Positions 25,809-39,438 of a stretch of 64,000 nt of DNA are shown here, piece after piece. The stretch's first letter is position 1. Each line of letters opens with the position of its first letter. The DNA comes from Woeseiaceae bacterium. Its GTDB lineage: Bacteria > Pseudomonadota > Gammaproteobacteria > Steroidobacterales > Woeseiaceae. The stretch covers positions 1,656 to 65,655 of the forward strand of contig JANQMR010000039.1 in the NCBI GenBank assembly GCA_028279985.1, given 5' to 3'. Both the position numbers and the translations under genes were made by a program. The notes below the pieces were generated by a model. It was not told the origin of the DNA, ran no database searches, and saw only the letters and a list, made by a program, of their open reading frames with translations.

Positions 25809-27109
25809 CCCGCCCTCTTGCCCTCGTCGTCGACGACGAACCCGACATCTGCGAGCTGCTGGCGATGACTCTCGGGCGCATGAATATCGATACCGAGACC
25901 GCAGGCGACGTCGGCGGCGCGAAGGGTCGGCTCGGCGCAACACGTTTCGACGTGTGCCTGACCGACATGCGGCTGCCGGACGGGGACGGCCTGGAGCTCG
26001 TCGAATGGATGCAGTCCCACGCACCGGACGTTCCGGTCGCGGTGATCACGGCGCACGGCAACATCGAGACGGCCGTGCAGGCTTTGAAGCTGGGTGCCTT
26101 CGACTTCCTGTCCAAGCCGCTGGATCTCAACCACCTGCGCAACATCGTCGAGAACGCGCTGAAGCTCGATCGGGGCGGGGACAACAACAAAGCCGGCCTG
26201 CTCGGCGACTCCGCGCCGATGCAGGCGCTTCGCGACATGATCGAACGCGTGGCGCGCTCCCAGGCGCCGGTGCATATCTCGGGCGAGTCGGGCACCGGCA
26301 AGGAGCTCGTAGCGCGGTTGATTCACGAGAGCGGTCCGCGGGCCGAGGGGCCGTTCGTGCCGATCAACTGCGGCGCGATCCCGGCGGAACTGATGGAGAG
26401 TGAGTTTTTCGGGCATCGAAAGGGCAGCTTTACCGGCGCGGTCAGTGACAAACAGGGGCTGGTGCAGGCCGCGGCCGGTGGTAGCTTGTTTCTGGACGAA
26501 ATCGCCGACCTGCCGTTGGCGATGCAGGTGAAACTCCTCAGAGTGATTCAGGAAAAGTCCGTACGTCCGGTGGGCGCCTCGCGCGAAGAGCCGGTCGATG
26601 CGCGGATCTTGTCGGCGACGCACCGGAACTTGTCTGAGATGGTGGCAACCGGCGAGTTCCGAGAAGACTTGTTCTATCGAATCAACGTTATCGAGCTGCG
26701 CGTCCCCGCACTGAGAGATCGCGGGAACGACGTGCTGCTGCTCGCCGAGCACCTACTGAAGAAACTGGGGTCCCGCGCAACGCTGGACGAAGGCGCCCGG
26801 CACGAGCTGCTGAGCTATGCCTTCCCCGGCAACGTCCGGGAGCTCGAAAACACGCTTGAACGAGCAGTGACGCTTTGCTCAAGTGGCACCATTGGCGAGA
26901 CGGATTTGAACTTGAAGTCGAACGAGATCGGCGGCGGCCGAAGCGTTGCCGCCACCGGGGATCTCGGAAGTCGCATCGACGACGTGCAGCGGCAAGCGAT
27001 CGTCGATGCGCTGGAGAAAACTCGCTACAACAAGACAGCGGCTGCGAAGCTGCTGGGCTTGACGTTACGGCAACTTAGATATCGTATCCAGAAGCTAGAG
27101 ATCAAATGA
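25805..27109 (+). CDS. pilR: Sigma-54-dependent response regulator PilR
   Basis: Receiver domain (VVDDE...DMRLPDGDG), AAA+ domain with GESGTGKE and the sigma-54 contact loop GSFTGA, and a C-terminal Fis-type HTH (NKTAAAKLLGLTLRQLRYRI). Confidence 0.9.
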   Translation: MTRPLALVVDDEPDICELLAMTLGRMNIDTETAGDVGGAKGRLGATRFDVCLTDMRLPDGDGLELVEWMQSHAPDVPVAVITAHGNIETAVQALKLGAFDFLSKPLDLNHLRNIVENALKLDRGGDNNKAGLLGDSAPMQALRDMIERVARSQAPVHISGESGTGKELVARLIHESGPRAEGPFVPINCGAIPAELMESEFFGHRKGSFTGAVSDKQGLVQAAAGGSLFLDEIADLPLAMQVKLLRVIQEKSVRPVGASREEPVDARILSATHRNLSEMVATGEFREDLFYRINVIELRVPALRDRGNDVLLLAEHLLKKLGSRATLDEGARHELLSYAFPGNVRELENTLERAVTLCSSGTIGETDLNLKSNEIGGGRSVAATGDLGSRIDDVQRQAIVDALEKTRYNKTAAAKLLGLTLRQLRYRIQKLEIK

Positions 27110-27201
27110 GCCGTGACCTCGTTTGTGACGCCGGACACGAATCTCGTTGCCGCGGGCCTGTATAAGTTTCTAGTCATTTGAAAAACAAGGCAATTTGATC
27201 C

Positions 27202-29151
27202 GTGCACCACGAGACCGCGCGCGAATCTCTGCTTTTCGGCGCGATCGTCGCGACAATCCTCATGCTCGGGTGGTTCGTCTACGAACCGGCATTGGACAGC
27301 GTCTTTTTGTTCGACGACGAGCCGAATCTCCACCAGCTCGAAGCGGTCACCGATTCCGAGTCGGCGCTCATGTTCACCCTATCGGGGGCGGCTGGCCCTT
27401 TGGGACGACCATTGGCTCTTGCGACATTCTTGCCTCAAGTAGACGCGTGGAATGACGAGAATGCCGCAGCGTTCTTGATTATCAATGTCCTGATACACCT
27501 CTTTAACGGACTGCTCGTTTATCACCTGTTCCTAAGGCTGGCCCGGACTCAAAAGGCAACTAGTCCGAACGATCAGTGGGTCGCAATCGGGGGTATGGCG
27601 TTATGGCTATTCATGCCGCTGCTCGCTTCCTCATCGCTCATGATCGTCCAACGGATGACCACGCTGAGTGGGACATTCATGTTAATCGGTCTCAATGCCT
27701 ACCTAGCTGCTCGATCGCGGATAGGGATGAGTCCCGCTTTGGCACTGACCGGGATGAGCACTGCGCTCGTTGCTGCCACTTCTCTAGCGGTTCTCACGAA
27801 AGAGAACGGTGCACTGTTACCTACGCTAGTGCTCATGCTCGAAGCCACGCTGCTCTCGCAACCTAGCGGCGTTCGCGTCGCGCACTGGCGGGCGTGGCAA
27901 ACGACGTTTCTTGTCGCGCCAACACTAGTGATTTTGCTATTCGTCGCGAGCAAGTTGCAATACGCCGACTTCCTGGTCGAAAGACGTGGCTACGACGGGA
28001 TTGATCGCCTGGTTACGGAGGCGCGAATACTCTTTGAGTATCTCTACAATTCATTTATACCGAACCCTGAGAAACTCGGTCCCTTCCACGACGACCGGAG
28101 GATCAGCGTTACACTCGCCGCTCCATCTACTTTGGTCCCGGTAGCAGGCTGGCTGACAGCAATCAGCCTCGCGCTAATGTTTCGCAGGAGATATCCGGTA
28201 GCTGCTTTCGCGATACTCTGGTATCTCGCGGGACATGCGCTCGAGTCCACGACGCTGCCGCTTTATCTTTACTTCGAGCATCGGAATTACATGCCACTAC
28301 TCGGGCCTGTGTTCGCGGTGGCTAGTCTATGCTGCGCTGTGAATCTTCGGTACCGCAAGATCGCCCGGTTCGCTCTGCCGCTTTACATCATCGTCAACGC
28401 AGGAGTACTGTACAGCGTTACTTCCCTTTGGGGCATGCCGTTGAACGCCGCGGCCTACTGGCACCACAATGCACCGGCGTCAGTCGCCGCGGCGAGTCAC
28501 CTTGCGATTCAGCAGTCCCGATACATGGCGCTGGCGGTAGGAATTCTCACTCTCAGAGAGTTCGCCCTACGAAATCCCGAGCATGCCTACCTGCGCTTGC
28601 CGGAGCTGAGCCTGTCCTGCAAGGTAGCACGGGGTGCAGATCACTCCGAAACCGTACAATACCTCAGTGATACTCTGCCCACGGTGAGATTCAGTCACTC
28701 GGTCGGCTCAATGCTCGATTCACTAATGCTTACGATCGCGACAACCGACTGTAACGGCGTCGACCTCGACGTTGGACGCAAACTGGCAGACACATTGATG
28801 AGCAATCCGCGCTATCGTAAAAGCCCGAGATTCGGCAGTTATTACCACCAGCTTCTGGCGCAGATCGCATGGGATAGCGGCGATCCCGAGGCAGCCACTA
28901 CAAATCTCGAGCAGGCGAGGAACTTGCTATCCACCGATCAGTTGCATCGACAATTCGTCGGAATTCTCGCCGCGCAGAACCGGTTCGACGAAGCCCGAGA
29001 GTATCTCGCTGTTGCTGAAGGTGAGCTTCCGTCGCACTTGCTGCGAAATTATGCCGGACGACTAAGATTGAGAAGCCTCGGAAGACACATCGACACGTTG
29101 GAAGCGCAGGCCGGCGAGCAGGTCCCCAATGCCGGGCGCATGGACCACTGA
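27202..29151 (+). CDS. Polytopic GT-C-fold glycosyltransferase, TMTC/PMT-like, with C-terminal helical-repeat (TPR-like) domain (paralog 1)
   Basis: 649 aa, GTG start. TM1 is followed by FLFDDEPN (DD at 27313-27318). It also has GRPLALATF, NVLIHLFNGLLV, many TM helices, YFEHRNYMPLLG and a soluble helical C-terminus. These motifs match the family signature I recall for TMTC/DUF1736-type GT-C enzymes. Confidence 0.65.
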   Translation: MHHETARESLLFGAIVATILMLGWFVYEPALDSVFLFDDEPNLHQLEAVTDSESALMFTLSGAAGPLGRPLALATFLPQVDAWNDENAAAFLIINVLIHLFNGLLVYHLFLRLARTQKATSPNDQWVAIGGMALWLFMPLLASSSLMIVQRMTTLSGTFMLIGLNAYLAARSRIGMSPALALTGMSTALVAATSLAVLTKENGALLPTLVLMLEATLLSQPSGVRVAHWRAWQTTFLVAPTLVILLFVASKLQYADFLVERRGYDGIDRLVTEARILFEYLYNSFIPNPEKLGPFHDDRRISVTLAAPSTLVPVAGWLTAISLALMFRRRYPVAAFAILWYLAGHALESTTLPLYLYFEHRNYMPLLGPVFAVASLCCAVNLRYRKIARFALPLYIIVNAGVLYSVTSLWGMPLNAAAYWHHNAPASVAAASHLAIQQSRYMALAVGILTLREFALRNPEHAYLRLPELSLSCKVARGADHSETVQYLSDTLPTVRFSHSVGSMLDSLMLTIATTDCNGVDLDVGRKLADTLMSNPRYRKSPRFGSYYHQLLAQIAWDSGDPEAATTNLEQARNLLSTDQLHRQFVGILAAQNRFDEAREYLAVAEGELPSHLLRNYAGRLRLRSLGRHIDTLEAQAGEQVPNAGRMDH

Positions 29152-29170
29152 GGCCAGGAACGATGGTCGG

Positions 29171-31123
29171 ATGATTGCGCAGCGGAAATCCATGGTGACC
29201 GCCCTCACAGTAGGCATCCTGCTGTCGGTAGGCTGGCTCTTGTATCGCCCGGGGACAGGCGGCGTTTTCCTGCTTGACGATTTCGATACGCTTGGCGGAC
29301 TCGCAGTAATCGAGGATCTGGGATCGGCAATCGATTACATCGGATCTTTCAACGAAGGTCCCTTGGGCCGCCCACTCGCAATGGCCAGCTTCGCTCTCCA
29401 GGCTGAGAGCTGGGATGAGGATCCGGCTTCGTTCATCCGAGCCAATACTGCGATTCACTTGTTTAATGGCCTTTTGGTATTCCTTTTCCTTAGCCATTTG
29501 TGCCGGGCACTGCGCTTCGACGATACCGACTCTCGATTCGTTGCGATCGCAGCGACGGCGCTTTGGATAGTCATGCCGCTACTAGCATCGGCGAATCTGT
29601 TGATTGTCCAACGTATGACTACACTGAGTGCGACGTTTGTCCTAACCGGACTGGCTGGTTACCTGAGCCTGCGCCGCAGAATCAAACACAGTACTGATAT
29701 GTCGCTGTTGCTCCTGGGACTGGTTCTGGCATTGACAACCTTGCTTGCTGTGCTCTCCAAGGAAAACGGTGCACTTCTGCCGACACTTGTCCTCGTGTTG
29801 GAGCTCACATTACTTAGTCGGCCAGAGTCCGTACCTACGGTTAAATGGCGATCCTGGATGGCTGTCTTTCTCGTACTGCCGACGGTCGTTATTGCCGTCT
29901 ACCTCGCTTTTAGAATCCCATATAGCGAGTCGGTGCTTGCCAGGCGAGACTTCGATACAGGTGAGAGACTATTGACTCAGGCGCGTGTTCTATGGGAGTA
30001 CCTCTCTCATGCGCTACTTCCGAGACCTACCGAGCTAGGTCCTTTTCACGACGCGTACCCAGTAGCCAGGTCCCTTACCGATCCAGCAACCGCTGCGGCG
30101 GCCTGTAGTTGGGTGCTGCTTGCTGTTGGCGCATTCGTTTGGCGCAGACGTTACCCTGTTGCCGCTTTCGCCGTACTCTGGTATCTCGCTGCTCACTCGA
30201 TCGAATCGACGACCATACCGCTGGAACTCTATTTCGAGCATCGTAATTACGTACCCATTATTGGCCCGTTGTTTGCCCTTTGTGCCGTGGCTGCCCGCGT
30301 CCCGACCGGATACCAATATAGTGCGCGCACTGGCATCCTCGCATACATCTTCGTCAACGCCGGGATACTGTTCAGCGTGACTTCACTATGGGGACAGCCG
30401 ATGGTCGCTGCAGGCAATTGGTATGCAAATGCACCGAATTCTATGCGCGCCGTTTCAAACCTCGCCAATCGCCAAATGCTCGAGATGGGCCCGATGGTCG
30501 GCGCAATAACACTCGGGGATTTCGCGCAAGCTCATCCCAAGCATTCTTACTTGCACATTCCGCAACTGGCGGTAGCATGCAACGCTAGGCCGGACTTGGA
30601 CTACACGGAAGACGTAGAACGTTTGCTAGAAGTACTTCCAAAGACCGGATTCTCATATACAGCAGGTGAGATGCTGGATACTCTGCAATCCGTCATAACC
30701 GACGAACCTTGTAAGGGAGTTGACAGCGAGGTCATCGCCAACCTTGCAGCAGCACTGATGCGGAACCCACGTTATCGAGTAAACCGCGTGTATCGCCAAT
30801 ATCACGAGCAATTGCTGGCAAGACTCGCCTGGGACGACGGCGACGTGGAAAAAGCGATCGAGCACTTGCACAATGCGTTCGAAATATGGCCGCATGCACG
30901 CGTTAACACAATGATGATCACCGCACTAGTGAGTATTGGCAAATTCGAGGAAGCACGAGAGTTTGCTGCAGAAGCAGAGCGGCGCTTGCCGCGACACCCG
31001 CTCAGGCGTCGGATCTCGCGCAGGGAACTCGACGGCCTGAGTGACTATATCGACTCCGCCGAAAGAGACGCTCGAACGAGCGATGAATCGTCAGGTGCCG
31101 GGCTGGCACACAATAATGACTAA
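29171..31123 (+). CDS. Polytopic GT-C-fold glycosyltransferase, TMTC/PMT-like, with C-terminal helical-repeat domain (paralog 2)
   Basis: About 650 aa. ATG at 29171 (AGGAA 10 nt upstream), with an alternative ATG at 29129 that overlaps paralog 1. It carries the same motif set: FLLDDFDT (DD at 29276-29281), GRPLAMASF, NTAIHLFNGLLV and YFEHRNYVPIIG. Long blocks are identical to paralog 1 (VQRMTTLS, KENGALLPTLVL, RRRYPVAAFA). Confidence 0.65.
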   Translation: MIAQRKSMVTALTVGILLSVGWLLYRPGTGGVFLLDDFDTLGGLAVIEDLGSAIDYIGSFNEGPLGRPLAMASFALQAESWDEDPASFIRANTAIHLFNGLLVFLFLSHLCRALRFDDTDSRFVAIAATALWIVMPLLASANLLIVQRMTTLSATFVLTGLAGYLSLRRRIKHSTDMSLLLLGLVLALTTLLAVLSKENGALLPTLVLVLELTLLSRPESVPTVKWRSWMAVFLVLPTVVIAVYLAFRIPYSESVLARRDFDTGERLLTQARVLWEYLSHALLPRPTELGPFHDAYPVARSLTDPATAAAACSWVLLAVGAFVWRRRYPVAAFAVLWYLAAHSIESTTIPLELYFEHRNYVPIIGPLFALCAVAARVPTGYQYSARTGILAYIFVNAGILFSVTSLWGQPMVAAGNWYANAPNSMRAVSNLANRQMLEMGPMVGAITLGDFAQAHPKHSYLHIPQLAVACNARPDLDYTEDVERLLEVLPKTGFSYTAGEMLDTLQSVITDEPCKGVDSEVIANLAAALMRNPRYRVNRVYRQYHEQLLARLAWDDGDVEKAIEHLHNAFEIWPHARVNTMMITALVSIGKFEEAREFAAEAERRLPRHPLRRRISRRELDGLSDYIDSAERDARTSDESSGAGLAHNND

Positions 31124-31141
31124 GCCTGAGAGGATTTTGAG

Positions 31142-31993
31142 ATGGCGACGCTATCGATAATCATACCGGCCAAGAACGAAGCCATCACAATCGCCGACAT
31201 CGTCGCGCGAGCGCACTCACGATTCGGCGACGCAGAGATCATCGTCGTCAACGATGGATCGGACGACGAGACGGCGCGACTAGCCGCCAACGGAGGCGCG
31301 ACCGTCGTCACTCATCCCGTGTCGTTAGGCAACGGAGCTGCAATAAAGAATGGCGCCAGGGCGGCGACGGGTGACACACTGGTAATGATGGATGCAGACG
31401 GCCAACATCAACCGGAGGAGATCGTTAAACTGCTCCAAAAACTTGACGAAGGATTCGATATGGTAGTCGGTGCACGCGATTCTGGCTCGCACGCCAATGT
31501 CGGCCGCCTAGTCGCCAACGGATTCTATAATCGTTTCGCATCGATGATCAGCGGCCAAACTATACCGGACCTGACATCTGGATTCCGCGCAGTTCGCGCT
31601 GTCCATTTCAACAGGTTTCTGCACCTATTGCCGAACGGCTTTTCGTATCCAACAACAATCACGATGGCCTTCCTACGATCCGGTTTTCCTGTCGGGTTCG
31701 TTCCGATTAGCGCAAAAAAACGGAGAGGAAGAAGTCATATCAGGCCAATTCGAGATGGCCTACGTTTCCTCGCGATTATTTTTAAAGTGGCAACACTATA
31801 TTCACCGTTGAAGATCTTCCTGCCGATCAGCGCCGCGTTCTTCCTGACCGGTATCGGCTACTACGTATACACCTATCTCATGGTCGGTCGGTTTACGAAT
31901 ATGAGCCTCCTCGTTTTGAGTGCTTCCGTGATTGTCTTTCTGATTGGATTGATCTCGGAGCAGATTACCGCTCTTACATTCAGCAAGTCGTGA
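31142..31993 (+). CDS. GT2 polyprenyl-phosphate glycosyltransferase (GtrB/Dpm1/ArnC-like)
   Basis: 283 aa with IIIPAKNE, VVNDGSDDET and the DAD motif (MDADGQH), then two C-terminal TM helices, the architecture typical of lipid-phosphate-sugar synthases. Strong RBS GAGAGGA. Confidence 0.8.
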   Translation: MATLSIIIPAKNEAITIADIVARAHSRFGDAEIIVVNDGSDDETARLAANGGATVVTHPVSLGNGAAIKNGARAATGDTLVMMDADGQHQPEEIVKLLQKLDEGFDMVVGARDSGSHANVGRLVANGFYNRFASMISGQTIPDLTSGFRAVRAVHFNRFLHLLPNGFSYPTTITMAFLRSGFPVGFVPISAKKRRGRSHIRPIRDGLRFLAIIFKVATLYSPLKIFLPISAAFFLTGIGYYVYTYLMVGRFTNMSLLVLSASVIVFLIGLISEQITALTFSKS

Positions 31994-31996
31994 CCG

Positions 31997-32722
31997 ATGC
32001 TCGATCGACTAAGGAAGTTCGCCGCTCGCGTTCGGAAGACGCCGTTACATCCACAATGGTTCGCATTCCTGCATTCGGACAGAGATCTACAAGAAATTTG
32101 CAAGGACCTCTCCGGCATGGTCCTTGACGTCGGAAGTGCGGAAGGTCGTCCTCGTCGTTACCTGTCTGAAAGCGCTACTTACGTCGCTCTCGACTACTAC
32201 GAAACGGCGAGCGAATGGTACTGTACGCGACCCGACGTGTATGGAGACGCGCAAGCGCTGCCCATCGCCAGTGCCTCCATCGACCACGTGCTGCTATTGA
32301 ACGTGCTTGAACACCTTCCCCGACCGGATCTGTGCCTACAGGAACTAAACCGGGTTCTCGAGCACGGCGGTAGCCTGACTATACAGGTCCCGTTTCTGTA
32401 TCCAGTCCACGACGCCCCGCTCGATTTTCATCGCTGGACTCGCTATGGACTGGTACAGGCCGCAGGTCGATCCGGCTTTGAGGTCGTTTTGGAAGGTGCG
32501 ATCGGTCACCCGCTGGAGACTGCCGCATTGAACCTGAACATTGCTATCGCCAAATCCACCCTCAATTGGATCGAAAAAAAGAGCCCTTTGGCGATACTGG
32601 TTGTTGCGGTACCTCCCCTTGTCTTTCTCATAAACTGCCTTGCCTGGGTTGTGGCGGCTGTAAGCCCAGATGATGACATGATGCCTCACGCATACCGAAT
32701 GCGCTGGATCAAGAGCTTCTAA
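31997..32722 (+). CDS. Class I SAM-dependent methyltransferase with C-terminal membrane anchor
   Basis: Motif I VLDVGSAEG and a Methyltransf_11-like core (IDHVLLLNVLEHL...LNRVLEHGGSL), followed by a hydrophobic helix LAILVVAVPPLVFLINCLAWVVAAV. It starts 3 nt after the GT2 stop. Confidence 0.7.
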   Translation: MLDRLRKFAARVRKTPLHPQWFAFLHSDRDLQEICKDLSGMVLDVGSAEGRPRRYLSESATYVALDYYETASEWYCTRPDVYGDAQALPIASASIDHVLLLNVLEHLPRPDLCLQELNRVLEHGGSLTIQVPFLYPVHDAPLDFHRWTRYGLVQAAGRSGFEVVLEGAIGHPLETAALNLNIAIAKSTLNWIEKKSPLAILVVAVPPLVFLINCLAWVVAAVSPDDDMMPHAYRMRWIKSF

Positions 32723-33672
32723 GCCTTCCGGTGCGCGCCCGCGAGCGTTGCAATTGCGACGAAAACAAGGTCGACAATTAGCGACCACAGCCGACTGAAG
32801 ATAGTGAGAACCAGCGCAACCTCTCGCGGCAGGATTACTGACAGCAGCACCAACTGGCTTGCGTCTCTCACGCCGAGCCCGCTGGGAACACATGGGGCAG
32901 CCATACCGATTACACCAGACAGATTGACGGCACCGACGATAAAAATGAGGTCCGCGGCGGATACGGAACCCCATACGGCAAGTGCCATAAAGTAGTACGC
33001 GACCCCAGCCAGCAGGCTACCGATCGCGTAGAGTAACAGAGATCGCAAAGTCGCCTTGGAGTTCGTCGCCAACTCAGCGTAGGCTTCTTGGCCCCGTAGC
33101 ACTTTGTAGGAGAATCTGATCACGCGGTTGAATATCGCCGGTATCAGCAGGATAGCAAACACCAGTCCGGCACTCAGCACGGCCAACCCGATTCGTCCGT
33201 TGAACTGAGAAGTCAGGCGACCATCCAATCCGAGGAGCAAGAGTGAGACTGCTGCAATCGCGACTATCTGCGTGCCAGCCTCAAGGACAGAGGCAACCGT
33301 GAGGCGGCTTTTGGAAATCCCAAGGTCCCGCGCAAGAAGCACGCGACCGGCGATCCAAGGAACAGTACCGGGAATGTAGCGAGCCATCCAGGACCGCGCA
33401 TAGATCGATGCAAGCACGCTAAATGCAGGTATGTCGGTTGCGCCAAGATCCCGCAGAATTCCCCGCCAAATATAGACTCCCCAGTAACGAAATCCCAGAG
33501 AGAAGCAGGCGCCTATGAGTAGCGGCCAGGGATCGAGCCGTAACTCTCGGAGGATTTCATAATCTAGCTCCTGGAGAAACAGCGCAAGGAACACGACAAT
33601 TCCGGACAACAGCGCGGCGCGCAGCCAGAATTCTGTGCTGTGGCGTTTAGTCCTAGTCGAGGAGTCGGCCAA
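32719..33672 (-). CDS. Flippase-like integral membrane protein (LPG-synthase-TM / UPF0104 family)
   Basis: 317 aa with about 8 TM helices. The pattern (FRYWGVYIWRGILRDLG..., SWMARYIPGTVPWIAGRVLLA) resembles the lysylphosphatidylglycerol-synthase TM/flippase-like family. TTG start at 33672 is uncertain. Confidence 0.55.
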   Translation of the reverse strand: MADSSTRTKRHSTEFWLRAALLSGIVVFLALFLQELDYEILRELRLDPWPLLIGACFSLGFRYWGVYIWRGILRDLGATDIPAFSVLASIYARSWMARYIPGTVPWIAGRVLLARDLGISKSRLTVASVLEAGTQIVAIAAVSLLLLGLDGRLTSQFNGRIGLAVLSAGLVFAILLIPAIFNRVIRFSYKVLRGQEAYAELATNSKATLRSLLLYAIGSLLAGVAYYFMALAVWGSVSAADLIFIVGAVNLSGVIGMAAPCVPSGLGVRDASQLVLLSVILPREVALVLTIFSRLWSLIVDLVFVAIATLAGAHRKA

Positions 33673-34849
33673 ACGCGTCGCTCACTAGCTGCCGCTGTTC
33701 ATCGATCCTCGATGCCAACAACATACGTAGTCGTGGCGCCTCTCGAAGCGCCCTGTCGATGGCATCTAGTACAATTTCCTCCGCCTCATCCAGCAGCAGA
33801 TCCTCAATCGGAAAAGCATACTCTTCGAGGCCCAGTTGGTCGAAATAGACCCTGCCTTTGTCGACGTAGAAAAAGCTCAGGCTCGGCGTGCATCCACTAG
33901 TAGCAATGATACTGGAGTGGAGCCTTACGCCAATCATGAGCCTCGCTGCCGCCAATAACGCCCTAAGTAGACGCGGCGAGACGACATCGTCTCGCAAGAC
34001 CTTCAGGTTGATCTGCCGATCCAGTTCACCGGTGATCTGCTCGCAAAAGGATACATCCTCACCCATGTGCATGGGAACCACCAATATGTTGGGTGTGAAC
34101 TCGGCCATTGCCTCGATGGTCATGCTCAGGGCCGCTCTATACCGTTCGTTCCTGGAATCGGGACCCTCTTTAAAAAAGACCTTGCGATATCGGTAAGGCA
34201 GGACTCCACCCGTCGAATAGTGAAACCAGTTTCTTGGCGCGAATGCAATAAAGTCTTCAAGAAACGACTTGGTTATGCCGAGACGATCGAGCACCGCAAG
34301 ATCGTCGGAACTGAAGGGACCTGGCTTCGGTAGAATCGCCGGGTCGTAGGCCGCATCGATTTTGGATGGCTTCACTCCCCAGCTTCTCAACTTCTCGTAC
34401 GATTCGTCGTCGCGAAGTATGAACTTCCGGGTACGATTCACTATGAAAACAATCAATCGCTTGCTGACCGCGGATCCCGTGGGGCCAATGCCTTGGAATA
34501 CGCCGTATATGTTCGGATTAAAGGTGCGCAGCCAGAGAATCTTGAGGCACCAGTACCACAACGTAGCCTTGTTCGTATAGTCCTTGAGATACTCACCTCC
34601 CCCCCAGTACACAACATCGGAGCGTTTCGCCTCGCGACCGAGTCTTATCCAGTCCAACAGGTTGATCGATTGCACGTCGGACCTCAGAAAGTCGATCCCG
34701 AGCCAACGTCGATCTCGCTCGGCTTGCTCTGAAACTCCCGTTATCTCCGCACCGTTGTGCCGACGTCTCACCAGTTCGATGACACCTTCCGCAATCGCAC
34801 GATCGCCACGATTCTTCGCAAGATCACTGTTGATCAGTAGTACCCTCAC
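33653..34849 (-). CDS. Polysaccharide pyruvyl transferase family protein
   Basis: 398 aa. The N-terminal MRVLLINSDLAKNRGDRAI motif and GGGEYL are typical of the PS_pyruv_trans family (CsaB/WcaK-like). The GTG start forms a GTGA overlap with the GT4 stop. Confidence 0.7.
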   Translation of the reverse strand: MRVLLINSDLAKNRGDRAIAEGVIELVRRRHNGAEITGVSEQAERDRRWLGIDFLRSDVQSINLLDWIRLGREAKRSDVVYWGGGEYLKDYTNKATLWYWCLKILWLRTFNPNIYGVFQGIGPTGSAVSKRLIVFIVNRTRKFILRDDESYEKLRSWGVKPSKIDAAYDPAILPKPGPFSSDDLAVLDRLGITKSFLEDFIAFAPRNWFHYSTGGVLPYRYRKVFFKEGPDSRNERYRAALSMTIEAMAEFTPNILVVPMHMGEDVSFCEQITGELDRQINLKVLRDDVVSPRLLRALLAAARLMIGVRLHSSIIATSGCTPSLSFFYVDKGRVYFDQLGLEEYAFPIEDLLLDEAEEIVLDAIDRALREAPRLRMLLASRIDEQRQLVSDAFGRLLD

Positions 34850-36114
34850 CGCCCGCGCACTCCAGCGGCAGACTGCAGCAAATCCAGGTACTTCCGGCTA
34901 ATAGCTGGCCAGTCAAAATCAGCAGCAAGGCGTTTCGCCTCTTCCGCCTCGCGGGCAACGACGGCCGGCTCGGCATTGACATACCGGATGATAGCTGTCG
35001 CTATTGCCGCCGTATCTCTTTCCGGCACAATGGTGCCACAGCGACCATCGAGTATCTCCTGCGCGCCACTGACGTCGGTTGCGACGATCATTTTTCCGAA
35101 CGCAAGAGCTTCCATCAATGCCACAGGCAGACCTTCCGAGTCGCCCATGCTGTCGATGACTGATGGCAACACGAATAGTTCGCTGGCCTGAAAAAGGGCT
35201 TGCTTTGACTCACCGGTAACGTGACCCGTAAAGGTAACGTCACCGGACAACTTGAGACCCATCACTTGGTCCGCGAGCTGCCCCATAAGCTGACCGTCGC
35301 CTGCGATTACCAGCTGTATCTCACGACGAATATCCTCCGCGAGCGTAGAGTATGCATCGATTAGTACGTTGAATCCCTTTTTCTCGACCAGTCGCCCCAG
35401 CGCGAGAATGATTCTGCGAGATGCGTCTATCCCGCAGCCGTGCAAAGCCTCTCTGACGGTATGATCCGGAAGTCTGTCGGCGCCCATACCTGTGCCCATC
35501 GGTAGAATTGTCAGTTTGTGCGCGAATCTTTCTTCCCACTCTTTTTCGTCAAAGAAATCAATCAGTTTTCTAGCTGTTTGATTAGAGACCGCCGTAAAGG
35601 CCGAAGCATGCCGCAGGACGCTCCGAATTAGTCGTTTCGCCAAGGGAATACTCCGTAGTACCGAGACGTCCGAGGCATGTGTGGTAAACACGAAAGGAAT
35701 ACCTGAACGTCTGCTGACACTGTAAGCTATTACAGCTTGCGGCATGAACCAGTGCGCGTAGATGAGCCTTGGGTGAATCTCACGACACAACAAAGCCAGC
35801 GCCCTTCGCTGTGCCAAGAGAAAAAATGGAATCAACAGATACCGCGCCGGCTTCTCCCTGAGCGCTGGGAGAATTCCACGACCGGTCAGTGTTTCGAGTT
35901 TATGTGGCCAAAAATAATGATAACGAACTTCGGTGAATCCTTCGCGACGAATGAGCGACGGTAGAGATCCATCATATGTGTTGTGAGGAACGAGAACGTA
36001 GACGTCGAGCGAGGGGTCTTCTGCGAGCATTGCCGAGACCTGTTCGAAGACAAACGCCGGTACCGGATCGTCGGGTCGAGCGGGAAACGTCGTTGTGGAG
36101 ACAATGATCTTCAT
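34846..36114 (-). CDS. Glycosyltransferase family 4
   Basis: 422 aa with a GT-B fold. The C-terminal EX7E region is SEGLPVALMEALAFGKMIVATDVSG. ATG at 36114. Transcribed divergently from pilA1. Confidence 0.8.
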   Translation of the reverse strand: MKIIVSTTTFPARPDDPVPAFVFEQVSAMLAEDPSLDVYVLVPHNTYDGSLPSLIRREGFTEVRYHYFWPHKLETLTGRGILPALREKPARYLLIPFFLLAQRRALALLCREIHPRLIYAHWFMPQAVIAYSVSRRSGIPFVFTTHASDVSVLRSIPLAKRLIRSVLRHASAFTAVSNQTARKLIDFFDEKEWEERFAHKLTILPMGTGMGADRLPDHTVREALHGCGIDASRRIILALGRLVEKKGFNVLIDAYSTLAEDIRREIQLVIAGDGQLMGQLADQVMGLKLSGDVTFTGHVTGESKQALFQASELFVLPSVIDSMGDSEGLPVALMEALAFGKMIVATDVSGAQEILDGRCGTIVPERDTAAIATAIIRYVNAEPAVVAREAEEAKRLAADFDWPAISRKYLDLLQSAAGVRGR

Positions 36115-36156
36115 TGATTTAGCGGCGTCGTCGAACGACGACTAGCGGACGAAATC

Positions 36157-36206
36157 TGTCACATTTTGACAATGGCTGACAGTTTTGTCGGATCACGACC
36201 GTGACA
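36157..36206. promoter_or_regulatory. Candidate PilR enhancer (UAS): clustered TGTC/GACA inverted repeats
   Basis: TGTCA-cattt-TGACA (36157-36171), TGACA-gttt-TGTCg (36177-36190) and a further TGACA (36202-36206), 75-125 nt upstream of the sigma-54 promoter. Confidence 0.35.
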
Positions 36207-36281
36207 TCGATCACAGCCAGCGGCTGGCTTTTCGGGTACTTTACCAATACAAACAGCATCTTAGCAACGATTGTCAACTAT

Positions 36282-36297
36282 TGGCACAGCGTTTGCT
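36282..36297 (+). promoter_or_regulatory. Sigma-54 (-24/-12) promoter of pilA1
   Basis: TGGCAC-agcgt-TTGCT is an exact match to the TGGCAC-N5-TTGC(A/T) consensus, 60 nt upstream of the pilA1 ATG. The sigma-54 activator PilR is encoded upstream. Confidence 0.8.
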
Positions 36298-36357
36298 TTA
36301 TCACGCGTACGGGCAAACTCGCCGTATTAATTTAGATACTCTCACGGAGACTGAGAA

Positions 36358-36789
36358 ATGAAGAAGCAGCAGGGTTTCACACTCATCGAACTGATGATCG
36401 TCGTTGCGATCATCGGTATTCTGGCCGCGATCGCGATTCCGGCCTATCAGGACTACACGATCCGCGCGCAGGTATCCGAAGGCATCAATCTGTCGGCCGG
36501 CGCCAAAACCGCTGTCACCGAGTATTACCAGGATGTCGGCTCACTACCAGCCGACAACCCGCAAGCCGGTATCGCTTCAGCTGGCGAGATCCTCGGCAGG
36601 TATGTCACCGGTGTGGCAGTCGCAAATGGCGTTATTACAGTAACCTACGGCTCCCAGGCCAACCCGATCATCGCCACCAGACAAGTTGTTCTGAGGCCGG
36701 ACACGACCAACCCGGGCAGCGTAACCTGGCAGTGCGAGACGGCCGGTGGCATGGAGAACAAGCACGTTCCGGCGTCTTGCCGCAACTAG
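36358..36789 (+). CDS. pilA: Type IVa major pilin PilA (paralog 1)
   Basis: MKKQQG/FTLIELMIVVAIIGILAAIAIPAYQDY: short leader, Gly-1/Phe+1/Glu+5. C-terminal disulfide loop C...C (WQCETAGGMENKHVPASC). GGAG RBS. Confidence 0.92.
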   Translation: MKKQQGFTLIELMIVVAIIGILAAIAIPAYQDYTIRAQVSEGINLSAGAKTAVTEYYQDVGSLPADNPQAGIASAGEILGRYVTGVAVANGVITVTYGSQANPIIATRQVVLRPDTTNPGSVTWQCETAGGMENKHVPASCRN

Positions 36790-36826
36790 TACGCACCTGA
36801 ATCAACACTAGTTGCTGAAAGCGGGA

Positions 36827-36860
36827 GGGGCTCCGGCCGCGTCGTTGGAGCCCCTTAGTT
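36827..36860 (+). terminator. Putative intrinsic terminator/attenuator after pilA1
   Basis: GGGGCTCC-N12-GGAGCCCC (8-bp GC stem) followed by TTAGTTCTCC. The weak U-tract makes partial read-through into pilA2 plausible. Confidence 0.45.
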
Positions 36861-37032
36861 CTCCTCATCAATCGCGCTTATCGGCCGGGGACCATTGCAA
36901 CTGCCCATGATCCCACGCTCAACTCGCGCGAGTTCTGCGAACCTACAGCCGAGGCTCGGACCCAAGGTTTCGTTTAGAATACTTCACCAACCCGTCGAAA
37001 CGGCCGGCAGTTCGGAGAACAGGAGCTGAATA

Positions 37033-37527
37033 ATGCGAAATGCCGCAAAAGGGTTCACGTTGATCGAACTGATGATCGTCATCGCGATCATCGGTATTCT
37101 TGCGTCCCTCGCCGTCTCCGCCTACCAAACGTATACCGTTCGCGCGCAGATCGCTGAGGGGTTGAACATGGCGGCCGCCGCAAAAACACCCATTGTCGAT
37201 GCTTTCAACGTCAACGGCACACCGGCTGCCGACCGGACCGAAGCCGGCCTGACCCCGCTCGCAACAGATACCCAGGGCAACTATGTGGCTTCGGTCGATG
37301 TCGTGGATGGACGTCTGGACATTGTGTTCGGCAACAACGCGCACTCGGCTATTTTCGGCGACCGTCTTTCGATAACACCCTACACGACACCCGGGGGAAC
37401 CATCGCTTGGCGCTGCGGCGCTGCGGCGCCGCCGAGCGCAACGCCACTGGACGGTGGCGGCGTCACTTCCCAACATCTGGTTCCGACCGTCGAGACCCGC
37501 TATCTCCCCGCCGCCTGCCGGGACTGA
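37033..37527 (+). CDS. Type IVa pilin (paralog 2)
   Basis: MRNAAKG/FTLIELMIVIAIIGILASLAVSAYQTY. 164 aa with a long C-terminal Cys-Cys loop (WRCGAAAPPSATPLDGGGVTSQHLVPTVETRYLPAAC). AGGAG RBS. Confidence 0.88.
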   Translation: MRNAAKGFTLIELMIVIAIIGILASLAVSAYQTYTVRAQIAEGLNMAAAAKTPIVDAFNVNGTPAADRTEAGLTPLATDTQGNYVASVDVVDGRLDIVFGNNAHSAIFGDRLSITPYTTPGGTIAWRCGAAAPPSATPLDGGGVTSQHLVPTVETRYLPAACRD

Positions 37528-37690
37528 GCAAGATTTGGGAGGAAACGATACCCGACCGGCCGCCCCCCCCGAGGCCGACTGGACCGATCCTCTATTTGTG
37601 TGATGGCGCGCACAAAATCCAGTTGATCCGAGCGGTTGGATCAGTGAGACTGTAATACTGGGAGAATCGGCACGGTGCGCTAGACAGCTT

Positions 37691-39409
37691 ATGGCAGCAA
37701 CGGCTTCACAAACCAATCTTGCTGGGCTACCTCGCCGGCTGGTGCAGGACGGCATTATTGCCGAGGACAGGCTCCAGGAAGCCACCGAAGCCGCCCGTAA
37801 GGACAAGCTGCCGCTCGTCGCCTATCTGGTCAACCAGGAACTCGCCGAGGCCCGCGCGATTGCGGTTGCGGCCTCACACGAATTCGGCGTGCCACTACTG
37901 GATCTTGATGCCATCGAGCTCGAAATCGACCTCATCCGTACGGTCGATCAAAAGCTGATCAACAAACACCGGGTGCTACCACTGGTCAAACGCGGCCAGC
38001 GCTTGTTTCTGGGTATCGCCGACCCGACCAACCTGCAGGCCATCGACGAGATCAAGTTCCAGACCAGCCTCAGGATCGACCCGGTTGTCGTCGAACAGGA
38101 CAAGCTCGAGGAGCGCATCATCAAGGCGATCGAGGCTGTCGATACGAGTATGCCGGGCCTCGAGGACGACGATTTTGACCTCGAGAACCTCGAGGTGGGT
38201 CCAGACGAGGAAGAGACTGAGGACGTTCACCGCGACGATATCGAGGACGCGCCGGTTGTCCGTTTTGTCAACAAAATCCTGCTCGATGCGATCAAACGCG
38301 GCGCATCGGACGTGCATTTCGAGCCCTACGAGAAGTACTTCCGCGTGCGGACACGCCTGGACGGTGTCTTGTCCGAGGTGGCACAACCGCCGGTCGCGCT
38401 TGCGAACAAGGTCTGCGCGCGGCTTAAGGTCATGTCGCGAATGGACATCGCTGAGCGCCGCGTACCACAGGACGGACGCATCAAGATGCGTTTGTCCAAG
38501 AATCGCGCGATCGATTTTCGAGTCAACACCTGTCCGACCTTGTTCGGCGAAAAAATCGTGTTACGTATCCTCGACCCGTCGAGTGCCAAGCTCGGTATCG
38601 ATATGTTGGGTTACGAGGAACATCAAAAAGACCTGTATATGAAACACCTGATGAAGCCCTATGGCATGATTCTGGTGACAGGTCCGACCGGTTCAGGTAA
38701 GACCGTGTCGCTGTACACGGGCCTCAACATCCTGAACACAGTGGATCGCAATATCTCGACAGCCGAGGATCCTGCCGAAATCAACCTGCCCGGCATCAAT
38801 CAGGTCAATGTGAATCCGAAGGTCGGCCTGACGTTCGCGTCTTCACTCAAAGCCTTTCTGCGCCAGGACCCGGACGTGATCATGGTAGGTGAGATTCGCG
38901 ATCTCGAGACGGCCGAGATAGCTATCAAAGCCGCACAGACCGGCCACCTGGTACTTTCCACGCTGCACACCAACGATGCCCCGCGCACTTTGACGCGCAT
39001 GGTGGACATGGGCGTGAAGCCCTATGCGATCGCAACCTCAGTTAGCCTGATCATCGCCCAACGTCTGGCGCGGCGGTTGTGCGACAACTGTAAGGAGGTT
39101 CGAGACGTGCCGCGCGAGGCCTTGGAAAAGGAAGGATTCGACGCCGGTGATCTCGACGACGGTTTGACAGTCTTTGGGCCGAAAGGCTGTAGACAGTGCA
39201 ACGACGGCTACAAAGGCCGGGTCGGCATCTTTCAGGTCATGGAGGTCTCGGAGACGATGGGCCGGATCATCATGGAAGGCGGCAACGCGATGCAGATCGC
39301 CGACCAGGCGGTCGCTGAAGGCGTTATCGATTTGCGCAGGGCTGGTTTGAACAAAGTCAAGGAAGGGGTTACCAGCCTGGAAGAGGTTAACCGGGTTACA
39401 ATCGAATAG
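37691..39409 (+). CDS. pilB: Type IV pilus assembly ATPase PilB
   Basis: 572 aa with an N-terminal GSPII-like domain, Walker A GPTGSGKT, and Asp/His boxes. A CxxC...CxxC-type tetracysteine cluster is present (CDNC...CRQC). Confidence 0.95.
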   Translation: MAATASQTNLAGLPRRLVQDGIIAEDRLQEATEAARKDKLPLVAYLVNQELAEARAIAVAASHEFGVPLLDLDAIELEIDLIRTVDQKLINKHRVLPLVKRGQRLFLGIADPTNLQAIDEIKFQTSLRIDPVVVEQDKLEERIIKAIEAVDTSMPGLEDDDFDLENLEVGPDEEETEDVHRDDIEDAPVVRFVNKILLDAIKRGASDVHFEPYEKYFRVRTRLDGVLSEVAQPPVALANKVCARLKVMSRMDIAERRVPQDGRIKMRLSKNRAIDFRVNTCPTLFGEKIVLRILDPSSAKLGIDMLGYEEHQKDLYMKHLMKPYGMILVTGPTGSGKTVSLYTGLNILNTVDRNISTAEDPAEINLPGINQVNVNPKVGLTFASSLKAFLRQDPDVIMVGEIRDLETAEIAIKAAQTGHLVLSTLHTNDAPRTLTRMVDMGVKPYAIATSVSLIIAQRLARRLCDNCKEVRDVPREALEKEGFDAGDLDDGLTVFGPKGCRQCNDGYKGRVGIFQVMEVSETMGRIIMEGGNAMQIADQAVAEGVIDLRRAGLNKVKEGVTSLEEVNRVTIE

Positions 39410-39438
39410 ACCGAGCCGCGTACAGACGGACTACAGAA

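Follow-up and report, generated by a model that had tools for sequence, protein, structure and literature searches.

A predicted polyprenyl-phosphate glycan pathway encoded in an island of the type IV pilus locus of a Woeseiaceae bacterium

To our knowledge, pilin glycosylation is understood in few pathogens only, where it involves TfpO/PglL-type O-oligosaccharyltransferases or TfpW with arabinofuranose. The stretch of DNA analysed here (the window, 64,000 nucleotides from a Woeseiaceae bacterium) carries, close to its pilin genes, a GT2 glycosyltransferase gene, a methyltransferase gene and a gene for a flippase-like membrane protein. The question is whether these genes serve one lipid-linked sugar donor, and which enzymes would use it. 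A preliminary description had treated the three genes as a module. Their open reading frames were found where it had placed them (31142-31993, 31997-32722 and 32719-33672), but they do not form a self-contained unit. The partners of the flippase-like gene are a GT4 gene and a pyruvyltransferase gene, and the whole unit is a pilus-locus island, with the following features in and around it.

25805-27109, plus strand: pilR, sigma-54 response regulator, left island border (by translation; 76-86% identical to pilR of related loci)
27202-29151, plus strand: GT-C-like membrane protein 1 with C-terminal TPR, TfpW-like architecture, 649 aa (weak TPR matches only, Pfam)
29129-31123, plus strand: GT-C-like membrane protein 2 with C-terminal TPR, 664 aa (TPR_19/TPR_14, Pfam)
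31142-31993, plus strand: polyprenyl-phosphate glycosyltransferase (predicted), GT2, GtrB/DPMS/ArnC type, 283 aa (PF00535, 2.6e-27)
31997-32722, plus strand: class I SAM methyltransferase with hydrophobic helical hairpin, 241 aa (PF08241, Methyltransf_11, 3.2e-14)
32719-33672, minus strand: PF03706 (LPG_synthase_TM/PplT/UPF0104) flippase-like membrane protein, 317 aa, TTG start (Pfam, 3.7e-15)
33653-34849, minus strand: polysaccharide pyruvyl transferase, CsaB/WcaK-like, 398 aa (PF04230, 1.5e-19)
34846-36114, minus strand: GT4 glycosyltransferase, 422 aa (PF13692, 1e-31; PF00534, 3.5e-30)
36358-36789, plus strand: PilA1, type IVa major pilin paralogue and likely glycosylation target (Pilin PF00114, 1.5e-24, and N_methyl)
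37033-37527, plus strand: PilA2, type IVa pilin paralogue with a Ser/Thr/Pro-rich C-terminal loop (Pilin PF00114, 1.1e-16, and N_methyl)

The island (about 27.2-36.1 kb) lies between pilSR and pilA1/pilA2-pilBCD of this Woeseiaceae-type gammaproteobacterium and, by its sequence, appears to be horizontally acquired. Its GC content is 53-58% versus about 65% in the flanks, and a relative (G013) has the order pilR-pilA-pilA-pilBCD with nothing between pilR and the first pilA, which represents an empty site. Besides the triad, the island encodes two TfpW-like GT-C/TPR proteins, the GT4 and the pyruvyltransferase. The GT2 and methyltransferase genes are separated by CCG (3 nt), with the methyltransferase ATG at 31997. 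At its other end the methyltransferase gene stops with TAA (32720-32722) and the convergent flippase-like gene, on the minus strand, with TAG (32719-32721), so that the two overlap in the 4 nt CTAA (32719-32722); both junctions are as first described. The same island was present at 75-80% identity, with one GT-C, in a metagenome locus (L100) that keeps both the 3-nt gap and the 4-nt overlap.

The GT2 gene is preceded by an RBS-like GAGAGGA, ends with TGA at 31991-31993 and is the only copy in the genome. Its catalytic domain (PF00535) covers residues 5-154 (Pfam). The motif MDADGQH occupies residues 83-89, and D84-A-D86 and R112 aligned with D94xD96 and R122 of GtrB (PDB 5eke, in which the chain numbering is native +23), that is, with the DxD metal/nucleotide motif and the acceptor-phosphate arginine (PMC4728340). 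At the putative catalytic acid D157 of GtrB, the same phmmer column holds G147 in the GT2, and D143 (D-x-x-SGF) aligned with the Asp of ArnC/DPMS, four residues upstream of that column. Two C-terminal hydrophobic segments were found by hydropathy (209-227 and 248-266), and the alignment with ArnC reached residue 217. All of the PDB matches (7/7) were ArnC, DPMS or GtrB. The best NCBIfam matches were AglJ (1e-39), PpgS (4e-27) and a Dol-P hexose transferase (9e-22), followed by ArnC and PgfS; none of the NCBIfam matches reached an equivalog cutoff, with the AglJ model scoring 136.6 bits against a cutoff of 325. PgaC matched far more weakly (6e-11) and in the N-terminal part only. Motif, helices and matches thus agree with the GtrB/ArnC/Dpm1 type proposed at the outset, and a processive polysaccharide synthase was ruled out, since the solved relatives are only ArnC, DPMS and GtrB and the PgaC match is weak and N-terminal. 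On its sequence, the GT2 is best read as a polyprenyl-phosphate glycosyltransferase of the GtrB/DPMS/ArnC type.

The methyltransferase belongs to a family of 577 homologues at E<1e-10, which formed 146 clusters (50% identity, E<1e-30), nearly all of 238-265 aa and aligned through the hairpin. Motif I is the variant DVGSAEG (family consensus DIGCADG); the family conserves D66, D84, the TPLHPQWFAF motif and the hairpin. Hydropathy gave one very hydrophobic segment (198-216, KD 2.57), which had been described as a terminal TM helix. In the AlphaFold (AF2) model (pLDDT 89, seven strands), helices 172-193 and 197-222 form a hairpin insertion that follows strand 6 (161-169) of the Rossmann sheet and precedes strand 7 (232-239), the C-terminal one. 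The hydrophobic segment was therefore retained and the terminal TM helix was not, because the modelled hairpin precedes strand 7; its position implies a hairpin that would be re-entrant and monotopic in the membrane.

The neighbourhood of the methyltransferase was surveyed in 74 species-level loci. A GT2 lies directly upstream in 27/56 loci from several orders, and a GT4, the commonest neighbour, directly downstream in 37/59. Twenty-seven loci have flanks of 8 kb or more on each side; of these, 22 contain a GT2, 20 DegT, 19 pil genes within 10 kb, 17 a GT-C and 11 a PF03706-like gene. The usual order is pilR-pilA-GT-C(1-3)-GT2-MT-GT4...pilBCD and was found in Woeseiaceae, Thiotrichales, Methylococcaceae, Rhodanobacteraceae (including the cultured Dyella humi), Acidiferrobacterales, Desulfobulbia and Syntrophales. 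The tight coupling of a GT2 and a methyltransferase, first thought unusual, is therefore a recurrent pairing. This island type recurs in many environmental bacteria and is made of parts of known kinds. Among congeners, the GT2 is present in 24/36 genomes and the methyltransferase in 7/36; in three congeners the methyltransferase occurs while the GT2 is absent, and two of these genomes are only 76-87% complete. From these sequences, the methyltransferase appears dispensable for the GT2 and phyletically uncoupled from it. It would be an optional tailoring step, outside donor synthesis proper.

More than 1000 class I methyltransferase structures matched the model at E<=1e-3 (Foldseek). The sugar O-methyltransferases RebM and AtmM ranked first by sequence and by fold, with E-values within tenfold of those of many unrelated methyltransferases, so that this ranking does not discriminate among class I enzymes. 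We consider it very unlikely that the enzyme acts on a membrane lipid, a quinone-like compound or a protein and is only loosely tied to glycan clusters. Such a substrate would fit the weak NCBIfam matches to lipid and quinone methyltransferases (Mtf2, UbiE/MenG, phthiotriol MT), a phosphatidylethanolamine N-methyltransferase among the structural matches, and the orphan copies at 55-65% identity (L026/L024, L078, L022), of which L026, L078 and L022 have no glycan genes within 10 kb. Against it, a GT2 and/or GT4 flanks the gene directly in most loci, the top structural matches are sugar methyltransferases, and unrelated methyltransferases fill the same position in GT2x-GT4-PyrT-flippase cassettes.

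The two GT-C-like paralogues are 45% identical and have 7-8 hydrophobic segments by crude hydropathy. Their membrane part had no Pfam, NCBIfam or PDB sequence match. The AF2 model of protein 2 is all-helical (pLDDT 91.7), and its best non-TPR Foldseek matches were the GT-C enzymes Pmt4 (E 7e-3, TM 0.43), PglB and STT3, weak matches at E 7e-3 to 6e-2 with none below 1e-3. After TM1 the proteins carry FLLDDF or FLFDDE (VFLFDDEPN in protein 1) at the site of the DDx motif, and D50 and D51 (protein 2 numbering) were invariant in 28 homologues. As published, TfpW is a protein of 646 aa that combines N-terminal TMs with a TPR region; its first periplasmic loop holds a DDx motif that is essential, and tfpW is encoded directly after pilA. 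With TfpW of P. aeruginosa Pa5196/PA7 the island proteins thus share the length of about 650 aa, the N-terminal TMs, the DDx in the first loop, the TPR, the place in a pilin locus and the polyprenyl-phosphate-linked donor, which in the island is predicted. They differ in that there are two paralogues and in the donor route: TfpW uses PRPP-derived D-arabinofuranose (PPPRS, DprE1/E2), whereas the island encodes a GtrB-type GT2 and tailoring enzymes and no PPPRS or DprE1/E2 genes. In many genomes the gene immediately before this type of GT2 encodes a GT-C, which fits the initial proposal that the upstream GT-C enzymes consume the donor.

The target of these enzymes is most likely a pilin. We regard as quite unlikely that the GT2/GT-C system decorates LPS, another polysaccharide or other envelope proteins, with the pilus locus as a mere recombination hot spot for variable surface-glycan cassettes. 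The GT2 of most congeners follows oadA-oadB, whether accompanied by a GT-C or not, and pil genes are absent from the surrounding 10 kb, so that the pair is not pilus-specific by position; one locus (L019) has the full GT2-RmlA-MT-GT4 cassette at that site, and Gtr-type systems classically modify O-antigen (PMC11127046). Against these points stand the pil genes near 19 of the 27 long-flank loci in several orders, the TfpW-like GT-C architecture and the GT-C placed immediately after pilA in eight loci (L058, L065, L068, L074, L076, L082, L086 and L099), as published for tfpW. In the window, moreover, the minus-strand GT4-pyruvyltransferase-flippase operon and pilA1 share a divergent region of 243 nt.

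The flippase-like protein scored 56.6 bits for PF03706 (cutoff 33.4), with residues 19-302 aligning to positions 5-299 of the 302-position profile, and has seven hydrophobic segments by hydropathy. This match and the NCBI name of one homologue ('flippase-like domain-containing protein') uphold the LPG-synthase-TM annotation given initially. A profile built from 29 homologues found no solved MprF chain at E<=1. PF03706 is the phospholipid flippase domain of MprF; we know of no proven substrate for members outside MprF. The orthologues come after a GT4 and a PS_pyruv_trans gene in 7/7 contexts. The window GT4, the first gene of the operon divergent from pilA1, shares 42-44% identity with its counterparts in the trios of two other loci (L102 and L103), and the pyruvyltransferase matched the CsaB model at 2e-32, below the cutoff (NCBIfam). 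In four contexts outside pilus loci, a different two-TM GT2 (AglJ/PpgS/ArnC-like) lies directly ahead of the trio in the same operon, and class I methyltransferases unrelated to the hairpin family come after it, twice convergent with the trio at a 1-4 nt junction as in the window. The five functions therefore co-cluster with non-orthologous parts.

Alternatively, two independent systems may adjoin here: a Gtr-like set for periplasmic glycosylation, of GT-C and GT2 (with or without the methyltransferase), and a separate GT4-pyruvyltransferase-flippase operon that makes and flips a pyruvylated glycolipid (a glycosylated phospholipid or diacylglycerol) and not the GT2 product. This we judge unlikely, although it has a precedent. 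The order GT4 synthase-modifier-UPF0104 flippase is that of P. aeruginosa gpgSDF (GlcN-phosphatidylglycerol), with C. difficile hexSDF cited as analogous, and the PF03706 proteins with experimental links, MprF and gpgSDF, act on glycerolipids, lipid translocation by GpgF being unproven (PMC12713373). The trio is also invariant and portable, standing alone in a Woeseia MAG (L114), and the PF03706 genes usually seen in other methyltransferase islands share no more than 16-23% identity with the flippase-like protein of the window. On the other hand, a polyprenyl-phosphate-type GT2, which phospholipid glycosylation would not need, stands directly ahead of the trio in the same operon in 4/7 contexts, so that the trio usually travels with one. 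The GT4 scores 35.5 bits on the GpgS model (NF053787) against a cutoff of 480, which places it outside GpgS, and the modifier of gpgSDF is a deacetylase where that of the island is a pyruvyltransferase. Other PF03706 subfamilies recur in methyltransferase/GT2/GT-C islands without a pyruvyltransferase. CsaB-type pyruvyltransferases of known role act on polyprenyl-linked glycans, which also speaks against a separate glycolipid.

We therefore favour, with modest confidence and from gene content, a single pathway in which a glycan would be built on polyprenyl phosphate, tailored, flipped and passed to the GT-C enzymes, probably for transfer onto pilin. At the cytoplasmic face, the GT2 would transfer a sugar from its nucleotide-activated form to polyprenyl (undecaprenyl) phosphate, and the GT4 would probably extend the lipid-linked sugar. 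The pyruvyltransferase and the methyltransferase would then tailor the glycan, the hydrophobic hairpin of the latter dipping into the inner leaflet to reach the lipid-anchored substrate. The MprF-type (PF03706/PplT) protein may carry the completed glycan, still on its lipid, across to the periplasmic face, where the two TfpW-like GT-C/TPR enzymes would transfer it, most likely to Ser/Thr of pilins. Within this scheme we infer the sugar, the methyl acceptor, the step order, flipping, transfer as a mono- or oligosaccharide and the pilin target.

The three-component Gtr systems (GtrB, GtrA and GT-C; ArnC/ArnEF/ArnT, CsbB/GtcA/YfhO, streptococcal PgfS/PgfM) share with the island the DxD-bearing GT2 with two C-terminal TM helices, a candidate membrane translocator and a GT-C enzyme acting outside the cytoplasm, which in the island is putative. 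In contrast to them, the island has no GtrA, ArnEF or MATE-type flippase and holds a PF03706/MprF-type protein in that place; between 27.1 and 36.1 kb there was neither an ORF nor free intergenic space for a small GtrA-family flippase. The additional cytoplasmic GT4, pyruvyltransferase and methyltransferase suggest that the lipid-linked sugar is extended or tailored before export, unlike in classical Gtr systems.

A more tentative proposal, which we hold possible but somewhat doubtful, is that many Proteobacteria of sediment and soil possess a bacterial version of the dolichol-phosphate route of archaea, from an AglJ-like start to TfpW-like transfer onto pilins. An AglJ-like GT2 would start the glycan on polyprenyl monophosphate, the GT4 would extend it, and it would be methylated, by the monotopic hairpin enzyme, and pyruvylated while lipid-linked; the MprF-type (PplT) flippase would then translocate it and the TfpW-like GT-C enzymes would load type IV pilins. 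The Agl set of Haloferax volcanii comprises AglJ, AglG/I/E, the methyltransferase AglP, and AglD for Dol-P-mannose, and AglD carries a PF03706 domain according to InterPro IPR022791. A glycan begun on polyprenyl monophosphate by an AglJ-like GT2 is a shared feature, this role being predicted in the island. In Haloferax, AglJ, further glycosyltransferases and AglP act on the dolichol-phosphate-linked glycan before flipping (PMC3871713), and GT-A domains are fused to PplT/PF03706 in Euryarchaeota (10.1101/2022.03.11.483950). The island differs in being bacterial and probably O-linked to pilin, in having a TfpW-like transferase and not AglB, and in the distinct hairpin-bearing family of its methyltransferase.

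In conclusion, a donor route different from those of the known pilin systems appears widespread beside the pilin genes of uncultured bacteria from marine sediment and soil, and is predicted to join a GtrB-type synthase to tailoring in the cytoplasm and to a flippase candidate of the MprF type. The PF03706 protein is a candidate polyprenyl-phosphate-sugar flippase, and the hairpin-anchored methyltransferases constitute an uncharacterised family (146 clusters when grouped at 50% identity). Genetic work is feasible in Dyella humi DHG40, a carrier that is in culture. If the archaeal-type route is true, PF03706 proteins would be polyprenyl-phosphate-glycan flippases, a new function for the family, and these bacteria would have hypervariable pilus coats, plausibly masking a phage receptor. 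Such a modular system, with a constant GT-C/GT2 core and swappable tailoring blocks, could explain strain-level diversity of the pilus surface and phage-receptor masking.

The triad of a GT2 glycosyltransferase, a class I methyltransferase and a flippase-like gene was located in the window at the positions that the preliminary description had assigned to its three open reading frames, with agreeing Pfam families:

31142-31993, plus strand: GT2, 283 aa (Pfam Glycos_transf_2, 2.6e-27)
31997-32722, plus strand: methyltransferase, 241 aa (Pfam Methyltransf_11, 3.2e-14)
32719-33672, minus strand: PF03706 flippase-like gene, 317 aa, TTG start (Pfam LPG_synthase_TM)

Both junctions described earlier were confirmed. 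The GT2 TGA is followed by the 3-nt spacer CCG and then by the methyltransferase ATG, while the TAA of the methyltransferase and the TAG of the convergent, minus-strand flippase-like gene share the overlap CTAA. The label flippase-like was also supported by an LPG_synthase_TM match over the full length (56.6 bits, cutoff 33.4); the flippase alignment, used as a profile against the PDB, gave no match. In the public annotation the methyltransferase (P0001) has 201 aa and starts at an internal Met. Since the N-terminal 40 residues of the 241-aa frame, including the invariant TPLHPQWFAF, are kept in 25 homologues, 241 aa is, judged from the alignment, the correct reading.

The assignment of the GT2 as GtrB/Dpm1-like was upheld. 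Its solved relatives found by sequence are all polyprenyl-phosphate glycosyltransferases, namely ArnC (8e-16), P. furiosus DPMS (1e-12) and Synechocystis GtrB (2e-9). The NCBIfam top ranks were AglJ (1e-39, whole length), PpgS, Dol-P hexose transferase, ArnC and PgfS, with no equivalog cutoff reached, and the processive PgaC matched far more weakly and in the N-terminal part only. D84-A-D86 and R112 align with D94xD96 and R122 of GtrB, the roles of which have been described (PMC4728340). The column of GtrB D157 is Gly in the GT2, and D143 of the GT2 (D-x-x-SGF) matches ArnC and DPMS. Two hydrophobic helices lie at the C-terminus. Because relatives, motif residues and helices are of the polyprenyl-phosphate type, the GT2 does not group with processive synthases, the outcome that the preliminary description had named as contrary to its proposal, and membership of that class was rejected.

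The methyltransferase belongs to a compact family with no characterised member. At E<1e-10 it has 577 homologues; those with E<1e-30 form 146 clusters at 50% identity, and almost all of these are 238-265 aa long and align to about residue 235. Its AlphaFold model (pLDDT 89.3) is a seven-stranded Rossmann fold. A hairpin of helices 172-193 and 197-222, in which mean hydropathy is 2.4 and Pro206 is invariant, separates strand 6 from strand 7, the latter made up of the C-terminal residues 232-239. Since the hairpin is inserted between these strands, the model makes a monotopic protein with a re-entrant hairpin more likely than the bitopic, tail-anchored form, which was rejected. The top structural matches were the sugar O-methyltransferases RebM and AtmM, a ranking that does not discriminate. 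We consider it very unlikely that the methyl acceptor is something other than a sugar.

The triad lies between pilS/pilR and pilA1, pilA2, pilB, pilC and pilD. On the plus strand, two TfpW-like membrane proteins (GT-C1 and GT-C2), the GT2 and the methyltransferase follow each other with a 23-nt overlap, an 18-nt spacer and the 3-nt spacer; on the minus strand, divergent from pilA1, run a GT4, a PS_pyruv_trans pyruvyltransferase and the flippase-like gene, with overlaps of 4 nt and 20 nt. This island is an insertion, because in the congener G013 pilR directly precedes two pilins and pilBCD. At 26000-40000, a span that takes in the island and the pilin/pilB region, GC content falls from ~65% to 53-58%, as would be expected if the entire variable portion of the pilus locus had been acquired horizontally. 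No tRNA genes were found at the island borders, and no operon boundaries were drawn from a promoter/terminator scan of 26.9-36.5 kb because sites were no more numerous than in shuffled sequence. The same island is present on a TARA metagenome contig (L100), where it is 75-80% identical, has one GT-C only and keeps the junctions unchanged.

Both GT-C proteins have an invariant DD after TM1, an N-terminal TM domain and a TPR tail, and in these features and in size they fit the published description of TfpW. Neither gave Pfam or NCBIfam matches for the membrane domain; the GT-C alignment, run as a profile against the PDB, matched TPR proteins only and, like a single-sequence PDB search, was uninformative on the membrane domain. 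The best non-TPR matches of the AF2 model (pLDDT 91.7) were the GT-C enzymes Pmt4, PglB and STT3, with weak scores. The GT-C assignment of the two proteins is likely but not proven. PilA2 (37033-37527) contains a long Ser/Thr/Pro-rich stretch within its C-terminal disulfide loop (…AAAPPSATPLDGGGVTSQHLVPTVETRYLPAAC), a plausible O-glycosylation region. Glycosylation of a target other than pilin appears quite unlikely.

Species-representative genomes were scanned for the methyltransferase, and neighbours at the 74 loci obtained were identified by tblastn. The loci belong to Woeseiaceae, Thiotrichaceae/Thiomargarita, Methylococcaceae, Rhodanobacteraceae (Dyella humi, Rudaea, Arenimonas), Acidiferrobacterales, Sedimenticola, Desulfobulbia, Syntrophales and Chloroflexota. 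A GT2 of the window type is directly upstream in 27 of the 56 loci with enough flank, with gaps of 16-119 nt between the GT2 and methyltransferase HSPs, and a GT4 is directly downstream in 37/59. At 27 loci the sequence extends at least 8 kb to both sides; of these, 22 have GT2, 20 DegT, 19 pil genes and 17 GT-C, and only two are orphans. The commonest order was pilR-pilA-GT-C(1-3)-GT2-MT-GT4-...-DegT-RmlAB-pilBCD. In Dyella humi DHG40, a non-pathogenic carrier that is in culture, the order is pilBCD-GT2-MT-GT4...DegT-GT-C (L092). Because it recurs in this survey, the GT2-methyltransferase pairing, which had been called unusual, is common, though uncharacterised. A PF03706-like gene was detected by HMM in 11 of the 27 loci with long flanks.

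In the metagenome protein P0103, a methyltransferase homologue, the reading frame continues into the start of the downstream GT4 (...VVVVTTSYP), which shows tight abutment of the two genes. At L013 (genome G017; 1465-2410) the GT4 is apparently split into ORFs of 129 and 207 aa, perhaps through a frameshift or misassembly of the MAG. Sister islands (L019-L021, L012/L077, L037) hold a FemAB/Acetyltransf_6-like gene, a sulfotransferase, a second methyltransferase, DegT and RmlAB, a gene content that suggests acylated, methylated amino-dideoxyhexose glycans in these relatives. In the window island, GT4, pyruvyltransferase and flippase-like gene replace the typical block of DegT, RmlAB, FemAB-like gene and second methyltransferase, and the window genome has no orthologues of DegT, RmlA/B, the FemAB-like gene or the second methyltransferase. 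A DegT/Rml-made amino sugar as GT2 donor was considered and set aside, since the window genome lacks these genes and its GT2 is nonetheless 66-74% identical to those of genomes having them.

Within the genus, a GT2 orthologue (66-74% identity) was found in 24/36 congeners and the methyltransferase in 7/36. Both genes are found in G006, in G029 and, on different contigs, in G017, and likewise in the genome of the window; three congeners have the methyltransferase without the GT2. Because these counts uncouple the two genes, GT-C/GT2 is the constant core, to which the methyltransferase adds an optional tailoring step. Across the genus the GT2 sits by default downstream of the oxaloacetate decarboxylase genes oadA-oadB, immediately so in most congeners (L105-L111, L104, L110, L113) and sometimes with a GT-C (634 aa) in between; this flank is a second preferred site of the same GT2 module.

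Orthologues of the flippase-like gene (44-81% identity) were examined in six contexts besides the window, and in 7/7 the gene follows a GT4 and a PS_pyruv_trans gene. In the main rival reading, which we regard as unlikely, GT4, pyruvyltransferase and flippase-like gene are a separate gpgSDF-like glycolipid operon. At L102, L103, L115 and L116, outside pilus loci, the three genes are preceded by a different GT2 (313-324 aa), which has two C-terminal TM helices and AglJ/PpgS/PgfS/ArnC profile matches like the window GT2. After the three genes comes, at each of the four loci, an unrelated class I methyltransferase; it converges on them at L102 and L116 (junction of 1-4 nt) and runs in their direction at L103 and L115. 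The five functions (GT2, GT4, pyruvyltransferase, methyltransferase and flippase-like protein) thus occur together even where the GT2 and methyltransferase genes are not orthologous, which is the strongest reason to place them in a single pathway. Next to these cassettes lie multi-TM proteins of 694 aa (L103, 10472-12556; 14 TM predicted, marginal PMT_2 match, E 0.014) and 678 aa (L115, 9484-11520), neither with significant Pfam/NCBIfam matches, which may represent an undescribed GT-C-like family.

We lean towards a single pathway. The GT2 would start a glycan on polyprenyl phosphate, and at the inner leaflet GT4, pyruvyltransferase and methyltransferase would lengthen and modify it. The PF03706 protein would then flip the lipid-linked glycan, and the GT-C enzymes would pass it on, probably to pilin. 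The Haloferax Agl pathway, in which AglJ and the methyltransferase AglP act on dolichol phosphate (PMC3871713), is a precedent, as are the existing GT-A-PplT fusions (10.1101/2022.03.11.483950). What the preliminary description observed is thus confirmed, and its interpretation has partial support: the polyprenyl-phosphate-type GT2 is retained and the unusual pairing is not. The island is a variation on Gtr-type three-component systems and TfpW pilin glycosylation, and its occurrence is widespread.
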